Positions 44,394 through 64,000 of a stretch of DNA of 64,000 nt are shown here, piece after piece. The stretch's first letter is position 1. Every line of letters starts with the position of its first letter. The stretch lies in NCBI GenBank assembly GCA_963825135.1, contig CAWGRW010000009.1, forward strand, positions 1,600,001 through 1,664,000, in the 5' to 3' direction. The position numbers and the translations under genes were made by a program. This stretch comes from an uncultured bacterium (GTDB taxonomy: Bacteria > Desulfobacterota_D > UBA1144 > Nemesobacterales > UBA2774). The notes beneath the pieces are model-generated. The model saw only the letters and a program-made list of their open reading frames with translations. It had not been told where the DNA came from and did not search any database.

Positions 44394-44466
44394 GCCCGGA
44401 TAGCTCAGTCGGTAGAGCAGAGGACTGAAAATCCTCGTGTCGGCGGTTCAATTCCGTCTCCGGGCA
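44394..44466 (+). tRNA. tRNA-Phe(GAA), CCA not encoded
   Basis: GCCCGGATAGCTCAGTCGGTAGAGCAGAGGACTGAAAATCCTCGTGTCGGCGGTTCAATTCCGTCTCCGGGCA; anticodon at 44427-44429. Confidence 0.97.
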
Positions 44467-44613
44467 TTCACTTGCACCATTTATTACCTAGCCAGCTCGT
44501 GGAGCTCCGCCGTTTCTAATCTTATCCGAAATCCCGGGGTTTTGGCCGGCATTTGATCTTCTTTCATTACCCAACGTGTCCTCTTGTGAATATACGGTTA
44601 ATTTTCCATATTG

Positions 44614-44655
44614 TTGCAAAAATTCGATAGATATTTTTGTTGGACTATATATAAT
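44614..44655 (+). promoter_or_regulatory. Putative activator box plus -10 element (copy 1)
   Basis: TTGCAAAAATTCGATAGA-18 bp-TATAAT; same layout as 57769-57810. Confidence 0.55.
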
Positions 44656-44668
44656 AGAATGACTTTAT

Positions 44669-44730
44669 ATTATTATCTTCCTTCTCGATGATGTCGGCTG
44701 GATGGACCCTGGATTCATCGATGGAGGGAG
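44669..44730 (+). pseudogene. Arylsulfatase N-terminal relic
   Basis: Reads IIIFLLDDVGWMDPGF (sulfatase metal-binding DD motif, AslA-like); no start codon, stops soon after. Confidence 0.65.
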
Positions 44731-60558: not shown

Positions 60559-60892
60559 GCGGTTTGACTTTTTGGTAACAAAGAATAATGAGAAATCATG
60601 CTATTACTGCTGGCGCAGCCGCTTTTGATATCGATGATGCCCATACCCTTAATTACCATGACATAGTCATGGAGTACATCCTGCCTAATTCGAAGAAGGG
60701 GAATTCGTATAAGCAGGTATTTAGCTTTAGTCGGAGGTCCTGAGTCAGTGATAATCGAGGATGGGAATAAAATACTAGCCGGGGTTATCTCAGATGGAGG
60801 ACCCCGCCTCTTTAGCAATCGATCCGGATAGTGCATTAAGCGTGTGTGGAAGTGATGTTCGGGATGCAGTCCGGACCATAAAGGAGAAAGTC

Positions 60893-63367
60893 ATGAATGG
60901 TTTTTCCAATTATTGTTACTCACTTGTAGCGTCTTTCCTAATTATTATTTCGGCATTCATGTCTGTTCCAACCTCATTTCTTACGGCGCAGGAGATAACC
61001 GGCGAGCTGGGCTCTCCCAACGCCACCACCACTATCAGCGGAAAACAACTTCCGCCGCCCGATCCGAAATTCGGCGGGGTGATCAAGGAAAGGGCCTCGG
61101 AGTCAACACAGTGGTGGCCGCCTCGAATCGTGCCCCCCAAAGGCGCACCGAACATATTGCTCATCATGACGGACGACGACGGTTTCGGTGCGCCGAGCAC
61201 CTTCGGCGGCGTCATCCCGACCCCCGCATTGGATCGCATCGCGAAGAGCGGGCTGCGCTACACGAATTTTCACTCGACGTCGCTGTGCTCGCCGACGCGG
61301 GCGGCGATTATCACGGGACGCAACCATCACTCGGTTGGCTTCGGGGTGGTAGGTGAAATCGCGACCGGATTCCCGGGTTACGACTCAATAATCCCGATTG
61401 AAAAAGTCACCATCGGTACGATCCTGAAGGAGAACGGGTATGCGACCTCGTGGTTCGGCAAGGACCACAACACGCCCTCCTTCCAGGCAACCCAGGCCGG
61501 GCCCTTCGACCAGTGGCCGAACGGCATGGGCTTCGAGTACTTCTATGGGTTCGTCGGCGGCGACGCGAGCCAGTGGCAGCCGAACCTGTTCCGTAATACG
61601 ACGGCCATCTATCCGTTCCAAAGCAATCCCAGCTGGAACCTGGAGACTGCGATGGCCGACGAGGCGATCCAGTACATGAAACAGCTCAAGGAGATCGCGC
61701 CCGACAAGCCGTTTTTTGTCTATTACGTACCGGGCGGCACACACGCCCCGCATCATCCGACGTCGGAGTGGATCAAGAAGATCAGCGACATGCATCTCTT
61801 CGACGACGGTTGGAACAAATTACGCGAAACCATCTTTGCCAATCAGAAGCGGCTGGGCATCATGCCTCCGAACGCCCAACTGACCCCTTGGCCAAAGGAA
61901 CTGCCCCAGTGGGACTCGCTCAACTTGGAGCAAAAGAAGCTCTTCATCAAGCAGGCGGATGTCTATGGGGCATATCAGGCATACACCGATCATGAGATCG
62001 GCCGCGTCATCCAGGCAGTCGAAGACCTCGGCGAGCTCGATAACACGCTCATAATCTATATAAGCGGGGATAACGGTGCCAGCGCCGAAGGTATGCTCAA
62101 CGGCACACCGAACGAGTTCACCACTTTCAATGGCGTCGAAGTGCCGGTCAAGGACCAGTTCCTCTGGTACGAGTTCTGGGGATCGGACCGGACCTACCCG
62201 CACTTTGCGGCGCCTTGGGCGTGGGCGTTCGACACCCCGTTCAAGTGGGTGAAGCAGGTCGCGTCGCACTTCGGCGGAACGGCCCAGGGCGTGGCAATGT
62301 CGTGGCCTGGCCACATCAACGACGTCGGCGGCATCCGCCGCCAGTTCCACCACGTCATAGACATCGTTCCGACCATCTTGGAGGCGACCGGCATCCCGGC
62401 GCCCGAGACCGTAGACGGTATAGCGCAGAAGCCGATCGAAGGCGTGAGCATGGTCTACACCTGGGACAAGGCGAACGCCGACGCCTCGACCCGACACACG
62501 ACGCAATACTTCGAGATGCTCGGCAACCGCGCCATTTATCACGACGGCTGGGTAGCGTGCACGACCCCGGCAACGCTCCCGTGGGAACTGAGCACCAAGA
62601 CGCCGCCCGACGTGATCACCGGGTACAACTGGGAGCTTTACAACGTTATGGAGGACCCCACCGAGTCAAACGATCTGGCTGGTAAGATGCCGGAGAAGCT
62701 CAAGCAGATGCAGGACATCTTTTACGCCGAGGCGAAGAAGTATGACGTGCTGCCGCTCGACAACTCGTCGCTCTCGCGCTGGAACGCGCCTCGCCCGAAT
62801 CTCACGGCTGGACGAACGGTATTTACCTACTCGGGAGGACTGACCGGCGTTCCCATCAGCGGCGCTCCGAGCATCCTGGACAAGTCGTACACCATTACCG
62901 CCGAGGTCGAGATACCCGAAGGTGGCGCGGAAGGCATGATCGTCACCGAAGGCGGGCGCTTCGGCGGCTATGGACTTTTCCTGAGTAAGGGCGAGCTCGG
63001 AGTTGGTCGGGGCAAGGTGGTATTCCTCTACAACCTGCTCGACCTCAAGCGTACGACGTGGGAAGGGCCAGAGTTAGGTGCCGGCAAGCACACCATCGTC
63101 TTTGACTTCAAGTCCGATGGTCCAGGCTTGGGCAAGGGAGGGAAGGGCGTGCTCTCCGTGGACGGTCAAGAAGTGGCCAGGAATTCCGTGGAACACACCA
63201 CCCCGATCACGTTCCCGGAGGACGAAACCTTCGACATCGGCCAGGACACGCGCACCGGCGTCGCGATGCTGGAGTATCGCTACGATGTTCCGTTCAAGTT
63301 CACCGGCAAGATCGACAAGCTGACCGTCAAGCTTGAGCCACTGGCGCCAATGCGAAAAAGCAAGTGA
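60893..63367 (+). CDS. Arylsulfatase (Cys-type, long form, secreted)
   Basis: AAGGAG RBS before ATG 60893; PNILLIMTDD, LCSPTR, GGTHAPH, GDNG. Confidence 0.95.
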   Translation: MNGFSNYCYSLVASFLIIISAFMSVPTSFLTAQEITGELGSPNATTTISGKQLPPPDPKFGGVIKERASESTQWWPPRIVPPKGAPNILLIMTDDDGFGAPSTFGGVIPTPALDRIAKSGLRYTNFHSTSLCSPTRAAIITGRNHHSVGFGVVGEIATGFPGYDSIIPIEKVTIGTILKENGYATSWFGKDHNTPSFQATQAGPFDQWPNGMGFEYFYGFVGGDASQWQPNLFRNTTAIYPFQSNPSWNLETAMADEAIQYMKQLKEIAPDKPFFVYYVPGGTHAPHHPTSEWIKKISDMHLFDDGWNKLRETIFANQKRLGIMPPNAQLTPWPKELPQWDSLNLEQKKLFIKQADVYGAYQAYTDHEIGRVIQAVEDLGELDNTLIIYISGDNGASAEGMLNGTPNEFTTFNGVEVPVKDQFLWYEFWGSDRTYPHFAAPWAWAFDTPFKWVKQVASHFGGTAQGVAMSWPGHINDVGGIRRQFHHVIDIVPTILEATGIPAPETVDGIAQKPIEGVSMVYTWDKANADASTRHTTQYFEMLGNRAIYHDGWVACTTPATLPWELSTKTPPDVITGYNWELYNVMEDPTESNDLAGKMPEKLKQMQDIFYAEAKKYDVLPLDNSSLSRWNAPRPNLTAGRTVFTYSGGLTGVPISGAPSILDKSYTITAEVEIPEGGAEGMIVTEGGRFGGYGLFLSKGELGVGRGKVVFLYNLLDLKRTTWEGPELGAGKHTIVFDFKSDGPGLGKGGKGVLSVDGQEVARNSVEHTTPITFPEDETFDIGQDTRTGVAMLEYRYDVPFKFTGKIDKLTVKLEPLAPMRKSK

Positions 63368-63458
63368 ATTATGGCATGCACAATCAGCCGGAGCATGCAA
63401 ACTCATATATCTGCTCCGGCTTCAATGGGTTACTAAATTATTTTTAGGGAAGGTCAAT

Positions 63459-64000
63459 ATGTCGAGATTATTTATTTATAGCTCTGTAATTGTTATCTTG
63501 GCCGCAACTCTCATTTTATCGGTACTTGGAATTCATTCCGCAACCGTATCTGTCATGGCACAGGAGATAACAGGCGTGCCCGGCTCGCCCGACGCGACCC
63601 GGACGATCGACGGCAAGGAGCTTCCGGCTCCGCCGCTTCCGTTCGGCGGCGTTATCAGGGAGAACGCCTCACGGTCGAAACCCTGGTGGCCGCCCCGAAT
63701 CGTCCCGCCCAAGGGCGCACCGAACATATTGCTCATCATGACTGACGACGTCGGATTCGCCGCCCCGAGCACATTCGGGGGCGTGATACCTACCCCTGCT
63801 CTTGACCGCATTGCCAAGATGGGGCTCCGTTATACGAATTTTCACTCGACCTCCCTCTGTTCGCCTACACGGGCCGCATTGATCACCGGCCGAAACCATC
63901 ACTCTGTAGGCTTCGCAGTGGTCTCGGAGCAATCGACGGGTTTTCCCGGCTACGACAGCATTATCCCGGAAGACTCAGCAACCATTGGTGAAATATTGAA
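63459..64000 (+). CDS. Arylsulfatase, paralogue of 60893 (runs off the window)
   Basis: Signal peptide; AQEITGVPGSP, PNILLIMTDDVG, LCSPTRAALITGRNHH. Confidence 0.92.
   Translation, partial: MSRLFIYSSVIVILAATLILSVLGIHSATVSVMAQEITGVPGSPDATRTIDGKELPAPPLPFGGVIRENASRSKPWWPPRIVPPKGAPNILLIMTDDVGFAAPSTFGGVIPTPALDRIAKMGLRYTNFHSTSLCSPTRAALITGRNHHSVGFAVVSEQSTGFPGYDSIIPEDSATIGEIL

Follow-up and report, generated by a model that had tools for sequence, protein, structure and literature searches.

The stretch of DNA analyzed here, 64,000 nucleotides (nt) of contig CAWGRW010000009.1 and hereafter called the window, contains a phenylalanine tRNA gene, tRNA-Phe(GAA), followed by a row of sulfatase-bearing modules that are bounded by displaced copies of the 3' part of that gene. 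The region is probably a tandem array of at least four integrase-less islands that entered site-specifically at tRNA-Phe and then decayed in place. The islands would have entered through a family of heterobivalent (lambda-type, arm-binding) tyrosine integrases in a Dadabacteria-like lineage of the Thermodesulfobacteriota, each entry joining the P arm of the element, which is about 150 nt long and carries two CAAAGAA half-sites one helical turn apart, to a tRNA-derived core to form attR. The integrase and the integrase-side P' arm would have been lost later, along with several cargo genes in module 1, and the genes worth keeping, represented by five sulfatases, would mostly have remained. We infer from this scheme that every module once had its own integrase, as well as the order of entry and the present, mostly immobile state of the modules.

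The intact tRNA-Phe gene was located by ARAGORN at 44393–44467 on the plus strand, and the Rfam tRNA family matched 44394–44466 with 71.7 bits; no Rfam family besides tRNA was matched in 43500–64000. Copies of the core were located by a repeat finder together with a direct pattern search. The core comprises 47 nt, namely the 44 nt from about tRNA position 30 in the anticodon stem to the discriminator (about position 73) plus TTC, and its attL-side copy, the 3' part of the gene including TTC, occupies 44423–44469 on the plus strand. Three further copies follow on the same strand at 48726–48772, 51671–51717, and 54015–54061, close to the starts of 48725, 51671, and 54014 given in the initial annotation of this DNA. 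That annotation described each repeat as the tRNA-Phe 3' half plus TTC, a description which holds for copy 1, identical to the gene over all 47 nt, whereas it overlooked that copies 2 and 3 differ from the gene in one 5-nt block of the T-loop (TCAAT in the tRNA, CGGGG in copy 2, and CGGGT in copy 3), the remaining 42 nt being the same. Three matches of 42–47 nt within 20 kilobases (kb) rule out chance as their origin, and an attL/attR-type layout is present, with the intact tRNA at one end and three direct repeats of its 3' part (at least 42 of 47 positions identical). As a separate candidate, the 35 nt on the 5' side of each core were considered as a decayed tRNA 5' half; this was rejected, the similarity being near chance by eye.

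The same locus was recovered from other genomes by scanning the genome_contigs collection with the core while leaving the T-loop pentamer free. The scan, whose hits did not include the window's own genome, yielded eight loci in six metagenome-assembled genomes (MAGs) labelled Thermodesulfobacteriota, Ca. (Candidatus) Dadabacteria, or uncultured bacterium, with eight distinct core sites, of which four lie in tRNA-Phe genes (L002, L003, L004, L006) and four are displaced fragments (L001, L005, L006, L008). The DNA upstream of tRNA-Phe is 81–89% identical between the window and the MAGs, which on sequence grounds are relatives at about genus-to-family distance. The left flank of the locus is conserved (PilSR, a MiaB-like gene, a transporter, a BBP2 porin, and tRNA-Phe), as is the right flank (a helix-turn-helix (HTH) gene, genes for proteins of 254 and 129 amino acids (aa), and PilM). 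The occupancy between these flanks varies, and the same arm-plus-core units flank unrelated cargo. In L004 nothing lies behind tRNA-Phe, and the right flank, which is 90% identical to that following the L008 fragment, adjoins the tRNA at once. L006 has a module of 5.3 kb that carries DUF2141 and AI-2E transporter genes and lacks an integrase, the tRNA and the fragment of L006 standing on one 238-kb contig in a two-site arrangement; L005 holds more than 10 kb of polysaccharide-export genes, and in L001 the cargo encodes a protein of 1516 aa together with a TPR protein. L003 carries a secreted 150-aa protein, a sulfatase, a HAD hydrolase, an intact cytochrome c/TPR protein of 783 aa, a second 150-aa gene, DUF2092, and DUF6515, and L002 carries a tyrosine integrase. 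Two checks that had been proposed for mobility, comparison of the block across relatives and a search for an empty site, thus both came out in its favor, since the block is not fixed in the same order but differs in content from genome to genome, and an empty site is present in L004.

An arm of about 150 nt, homologous among the copies, stands before each internal core copy. In an alignment of seven fragments, the three window copies and the four from relatives (L001, L005, L006, L008), the arm is common to all, and the homology starts abruptly at an 18-nt double motif, CAAAGAATAG(C/T)CAAAGAA, whose half-sites are 11 nt apart and which lies about 125 nt before the core. Outside the pentamer, the core (42 positions) is 100% identical across the seven fragments, compared with 56% for the 42 nt upstream and 26% for the 42 nt downstream. 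The arm of module 1, designated type A (48550–48725, plus strand), opens with CAAAGAATAGCCAAAGAA and contains the motif within a tandem 25-nt duplication, at 48558–48575 and 48583–48600. The arms of module 2 (51521–51670) and module 3 (53866–54014), both on the plus strand, are of type B, with the motif at 51529–51546 and 53874–53891, respectively, each with two mismatches. With up to three mismatches allowed, the motif occurs four times in the window, always at the arms (twice in module 1), where 0.1 matches would be expected per 64 kb. At the same threshold, its occurrences in the relatives are the four fragment arms and one site in L002, and nowhere else.

The L002 site is located 72 nt downstream of the tRNA core and immediately before the start codon of a PF00589 tyrosine integrase, a gene that lies directly behind tRNA-Phe and runs off the contig end; the N-terminus of this integrase resembles an arm-binding domain. 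The 18-nt motif is thus a good candidate for the arm-type site of a tRNA-Phe integrase family. Because the arms are conserved, the motif is restricted to them, and the same motif precedes the L002 integrase, the internal repeats are, as judged from these sequence features, attR-type junctions (P arm plus core) of a tRNA-Phe-targeting tyrosine integrase family. The proposal of the initial annotation that the repeats are recombination-site scars left by tyrosine integrases at tRNA-Phe is therefore borne out by the arms, by the comparable units of the relatives, by the empty site of L004, and by the integrase of L002. Phage and plasmid collections searched with arm plus core gave no match to the arm; the core part alone matched tRNA-Phe genes in 6 phage and 79 plasmid records. 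Between genomes (module 1, L006, L008), arm A is 92.6% (module 1 versus L006) and 85.2% identical, and the neighbouring core DNA 87–88%. Arm A therefore diverges in step with the core DNA, which suggests an old, vertically kept scar; if arm A is that old, modules 2–4 would have entered at the fragment and not at the tRNA, a route known from streptococcal elements (PMC5704250, in the part cited). A short hairpin, CCCCTAAATTCAAGGG, was also observed in the middle of arm A at 48659–48674; it is kept in L006, is not obvious in the type B arms, and may be a site for a bending protein or the terminator of the upstream gene.

The core copies delimit modules of 4.3, 2.9, 2.3, and more than 9.9 kb (modules 1–4), the sizes originally reported. 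Every module contains at least one sulfatase gene of family PF00884 oriented like the tRNA, on the plus strand, as had been noticed from the sequence: 44859–46580 in module 1, 48917–51379 in module 2, 51941–53713 in module 3, and 60794–63367 together with 63333 to the window end in module 4. The C-x-P/A-x-R active-site motif is found in all five sulfatases, which are intact and belong to at least three subfamilies. Pfam likewise agrees with the description of modules 2 and 3 as essentially one sulfatase gene each, encoding 820 and 590 aa, respectively. These two proteins are 27.9% identical and belong to different subfamilies; the module 2 sulfatase is 43.5% identical to the first sulfatase of module 4, that of module 3 is 26–31% identical to the sulfatases of modules 1, 2, and 4 in partial alignments, and the two sulfatases of module 4 are paralogous (71% identical).

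The DNA common to modules 1–3 consists of the arm and the core alone, and their sulfatases are 24–28% identical; tandem duplication as the origin of the array was rejected on these two grounds. The same comparison bears on the view that the array is non-mobile or an artefact, produced by unequal crossing-over duplication or by an assembly that chained strain-specific islands via the 47-nt repeat. Repeats of 47 nt can indeed confuse short-k assemblies, and the relatives found are all MAGs. However, the module sequences are unrelated except for arm and core, the three fragments differ in pentamer and arm and would thus form distinct graph nodes, and the arrangement of tRNA plus fragment also occurs on the 238-kb contig of an independent MAG (L006), which together render such an origin very improbable.

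Evidence for decay in place is clearest in module 1, whose body spans 44470–48549 on the plus strand and which is a degraded relative of the L003 block and a visible deletion remnant. It retains the last 29 codons of the gene for the 150-aa secreted protein (44709–44795), a SYLF-lipoprotein gene (46718–47290) interrupted by an in-frame TAG at 47111–47113, and a multihaem cytochrome c/TPR gene (47538–48489) that has lost a large internal part and in which some 210 N-terminal codons (47536–48162, corresponding to 14403–15029 of L003) are fused out of frame to the TPR tail. The interval of L003 from the cytochrome gene to the second 150-aa gene was searched for a hidden core copy, and none was found at up to 12 mismatches in a search that passed over window copy 2 (5 mismatches).

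A second line of evidence comes from the P' arm, which forms a series from complete, with an integrase, in L002 to a degenerate motif without an integrase in L001 and L003. In the window, module 4 keeps its first 12–25 nt or so alone, a remnant that resembles the tRNA-proximal flanks in L003 and L002, and no motif is present in modules 1–3; over their first 30 nt, modules 1 and 2 have at most weak similarity to the arms of L001 and L002. It is on this truncation series, together with the gene remnant, the in-frame stop, and the deleted cytochrome gene of module 1, that the reading of decay after entry rests.

As the initial annotation had reported for the modules, no integrase, relaxase, or phage gene is visible, and Pfam, PHROGs, and tblastn agree on this. 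Pfam detected no integrase, relaxase, or phage-function domain in the 19 main open reading frames (ORFs) of 39500–64000 or in the 32 ORFs of 1–39500, nor, among the 148 stop-to-stop frames of 55 aa or longer in 44468–64000, in the 112 that were scanned; the other 36 frames comprise 7 long ORFs scanned earlier and 29 frames in 60779–64000, including the last two sulfatases, whose ORFs were scanned. PHROGs matched the 15 island ORFs to families of unknown function alone. In tblastn, the N-terminus of the L002 integrase and two longer homologues (P0001 and P0002, the two matches obtained in all from a protein search confined to longer proteins) gave chance-level matches in the window, with E values of 0.18 or worse. 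Modules without an integrase are the rule here, since they make up four of four in the window and two of the three occupied tRNA-proximal ends in relatives (L003 and L006).

Several observations weigh against accretion followed by decay. Pieces of an integrase pseudogene would be expected in modules that have lost the gene, and none were found in the window or in L001, L003, and L006. In modules 1–3 the core runs straight into sequence without a P' motif, so that every deletion must have ended near the core, which is awkward for randomly placed deletions. Module 2 has exactly one gene, and so does module 3. Furthermore, the contrast between 100% identity of the core and 56% of the arm, as a sequence pattern, indicates recent displacement or continuing constraint and fits living sites better than fossils, and the variants of the T-loop pentamer are unexplained by plain integration and decay.

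The first two of these observations would be accounted for if an integrase-bearing element had brought captured flanking DNA, acquired when excision in a donor was imprecise, as in specialized transduction, and had then excised precisely, leaving cargo and core behind. Such a process has been proposed for the tRNA islands of Prochlorococcus in the portion cited here of bioRxiv 10.1101/2020.12.28.424599. The simple form of this explanation does not predict the element-type P arm that stands at each module right end, the partial P' arms in module 4 and L003 fit truncation better, and the analysis provides no direct evidence for it; we consider it quite improbable.

The initial annotation went further and regarded the modules as minimal integron-like cassettes, that is, living units of gene, arm, and core that are moved by an integrase encoded elsewhere, with tRNA-Phe serving as an integron-like store of sulfatases. 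Modules 2 and 3, single genes with arm and core at the 3' end, have the expected form; the cores are perfectly kept outside the pentamer; and the prevalence of integrase-less modules, the lack of integrase fragments, and the presence of a matching integrase family in the clade (L002) are all in keeping with mobilization in trans. Integrative and mobilizable elements offer a precedent, as incoming elements are described as integrating into a resident attR (PMC5704250, in the part cited).

However, the P' motif, which stands next to the integrase in L002, is absent at the left ends of all window modules. Following the lambda paradigm, heterobivalent integrases normally require arm sites on both sides. 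Two mismatches are found in the arm motif of module 2 and likewise in that of module 3, module 1 is full of pseudogenes, and the divergence of arm A relative to the core DNA is what a vertically inherited scar would be expected to show. Cargo orientation also varies in the relatives, the genes beside the arm in L005 and L006 not always being oriented like the tRNA. There is, in addition, no platform of the attI/intI type and no common promoter, and module 2 has a promoter-like site of its own before its sulfatase (48829–48856). The scan of 44300–54500 behind this last point was close to shuffled sequence in its yield (19 promoter-like sites versus 13.1, and 16 terminator-like sites versus 11.0) and was used solely for the module 2 site. 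Given the module 1 pseudogenes and the P' motif missing from the window modules, decay of former islands is likelier than an integron-like cassette system, and the latter is in our view unlikely. The annotation had itself asked whether modules might be deletion remnants of larger islands; module 1 is one, and the P' arm is truncated, which counts against cassettes.

The T-loop pentamer poses a puzzle for any reading of the locus. It is TCAAT, as in the tRNA, in window copy 1 and L005, TCAAA in L001, CGGGT in window copy 3, L006, and L008, and CGGGG in window copy 2, so that four of the seven displaced halves carry CGGGT or CGGGG, forms which the rules of T-loop structure make incompatible with a working tRNA. 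The pentamer is linked to neither flank. Both forms occur with arm A and with type B arms, and also beside the native flank, and the module-4-type left end follows CGGGT in the window and, in the L003 tRNA, the wild-type form. At about tRNA position 30, identity rises from 56% to 100%, on the aligned sequences the pattern expected of a crossover in the anticodon loop; under the sublocation scheme of Williams, an identity block beginning in the anticodon stem reportedly points to the same position. A crossover in the anticodon loop implies that all displaced halves once belonged to working tRNAs, and this conflicts with L008, in which CGGGT stands directly beside the native flank that in L004 follows the intact tRNA.

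Three explanations are possible. By analogy with other integrases, the pentamer might lie within a heterology-tolerant region of strand exchange, the tRNA copy being kept wild-type by selection. Alternatively, the crossover may lie 3' of the T-loop, with an attP that contains an unusually long tRNA-like stretch, or the change may be secondary, splitting the 47-nt repeat into 25 and 17 nt and thereby stabilizing the island. A templated origin, either quasi-palindromic or slipped, was also looked for by eye, and no consistent template was found across the loci. The parallel for the first explanation is IntDOT of CTnDOT, whose exchange region is described in the cited part of PMC2034462 as two conserved and five variable bases in which heterology is tolerated; here, two conserved bases (GT) are likewise followed by five variable ones within an otherwise invariant site, a parallel resting on sequence. 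In phage Ms6, as reported in the cited part of PMC1762012, strand exchange takes place in the T-loop, where the variable block of the present locus also lies; unlike the heterology seen here, Ms6 requires identity.

A more far-reaching proposal is that the arm-plus-core sites are live, an L002-type integrase elsewhere in the genome moving the single-gene sulfatase modules in trans by exchange in the T-loop with 2 bp of homology, the 5-nt block acting as coupling sequence and the tRNA being kept wild-type by selection. We attach a low probability to this proposal; if true, a heterology-tolerant, tRNA-targeting integrase would be supplying sulfatases to a cassette-like store in an uncultured lineage. 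The pentamer could locate the region of strand exchange or reveal how islands become locked in place.

Tandem accretion of integrase-less, att-bounded modules is already known from three systems, namely the streptococcal cis-mobilizable elements (CIMEs), the ssrA islands of Dehalococcoides, and the tRNA islands of Prochlorococcus. CIMEs related to ICESt1/ICESt3 in Streptococcus are described in the cited part of PMC5704250 as integrase-less, att-bounded modules in tandem, in which new arrivals enter at a resident att site. The present array shares with them att repeats of a target-gene 3' end, the head-to-tail order of modules, and, as far as that part describes them, the loss of integration and transfer genes; it differs in that no conjugative partner is seen here and in phylum and cargo. 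The definition of a CIME, with attL and attR fully kept, applies in part, as the cores are intact and P arms are present and the P' motif is absent at the four left ends.

Among the ssrA islands of Dehalococcoides, 15 have no integration module and contain 38 rdhA genes (PMC3146451, in the part cited). The ssrA islands stand in tandem downstream of a small-RNA gene and are bounded by direct repeats of its 3' end, many of them lack an integration module, and one enzyme family dominates the cargo. According to the same part of that source, each repeat also has a conserved motif upstream of it, and the repeats differ systematically in sequence from the gene, both of which have counterparts here. 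The Dehalococcoides system as described there uses a tmRNA target, a 20-bp repeat, and a serine recombinase, whereas the present one involves tRNA-Phe, a 47-nt core, an arm of about 150 nt, a tyrosine recombinase, and sulfatase cargo; by analogy, it may be regarded as the closest parallel in spirit.

The Prochlorococcus islands, as portrayed in the cited portion of bioRxiv 10.1101/2020.12.28.424599, lie beside tRNA genes, with elements separated by partial tRNAs and with degenerate remnants, features that are all found here, and island genes without a functional element are explained there as material left behind. Unlike tycheposons, for which that portion describes an integrase and replication or packaging hallmark genes, the window yielded none of these genes; lineage and cargo differ as well, and the partial tRNAs are present. 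With integrons, the array has in common that units of mostly one gene, each with a recombination site at its end, are lined up in one direction beside a fixed entry point. However, the 64-kb window contains no PF00589 protein and so no intI/attI/Pc platform, the tRNA has housekeeping genes and a porin upstream of it, and the genes have upstream regions of their own. The sites are direct tRNA-derived repeats with non-palindromic arms of the lambda type rather than folded attC hairpins, a comparison made with no attC model run. The resemblance is functional alone, and the array is not an integron.

The novelty lies in the lineage, in the att site family and the arm motif that goes with it, in the sulfatase cargo, which includes two single-gene modules, and in the polymorphism of the pentamer. 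A little-studied lineage would gather sulfate-ester hydrolases as islands repeatedly enter, site-specifically, at a single tRNA gene and are then pruned, following the same logic as the dehalogenase islands of Dehalococcoides and the nutrient islands of Prochlorococcus. The analysis also defines a new att site family, comprising core, arm, and arm motif, together with a candidate integrase.

Module 4 (54062–64000, plus strand) has its right end beyond the window. Ahead of its two sulfatases are genes for the 150-aa secreted protein (54399–54851), a DUF1254/DUF1214 protein (54875–56326), an AraC regulator on the minus strand (56721–57632), a 186-aa ORF, a Cys-rich repeat protein (58606–58998), and a DUF2092 protein (59117–59920). 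Between the last of these and the first sulfatase of the module lies a Q-rich ORF of 211 aa (59923–60558, plus strand), whose product matches no family and in which three tandem 33-nt units at 60123–60244, 79–82% identical, encode a glutamine-rich repeat. The secreted, glycine-rich 150-aa protein has no match in Pfam, NCBIfam, or PHROG and recurs at or near module left ends, with two copies in L003 (10444–10896 and 17088–17539, 89% identical), one in module 4 of the window, and, in module 1, the remnant of 29 codons; its gene is a possible hallmark of the cargo in this element family.

The 1516-aa protein of L001 is encoded upstream of the fragment by an ORF at 2–4552 (MAG SMAG_U16376) that is open at the contig start, so that its full length exceeds 1516 aa, and it has no Pfam match at E≤1e-5. 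The HTH, 254-aa, and 129-aa genes of the right flank were located at 1889–3039 in L004, 12232–13374 in L005, 8198–9348 in L006, and 2487–3637 in L008. The 254-aa and 129-aa genes overlap, match no family, and lie just before pilM. A loose copy of the arm motif is found upstream of the HTH gene, and this "native" flank could therefore be an ancient element in its own right.

Elsewhere in the window, glyS, the gene for the beta subunit of glycyl-tRNA synthetase (minus strand, 22805–24893), is split into ORFs at 23748–24893 and 22805–23686 by a change of frame near 23690–23750, which is due to a frameshift or assembly error or else to genuine disruption of an essential gene. Also in the core part of the window, at 11040–12626 on the minus strand, are class III polyhydroxyalkanoate synthase genes (a PhaC-like hydrolase and PhaE) with an enoyl-CoA hydratase and an SDR reductase, an ordinary set that is nevertheless informative on the storage metabolism of the lineage.

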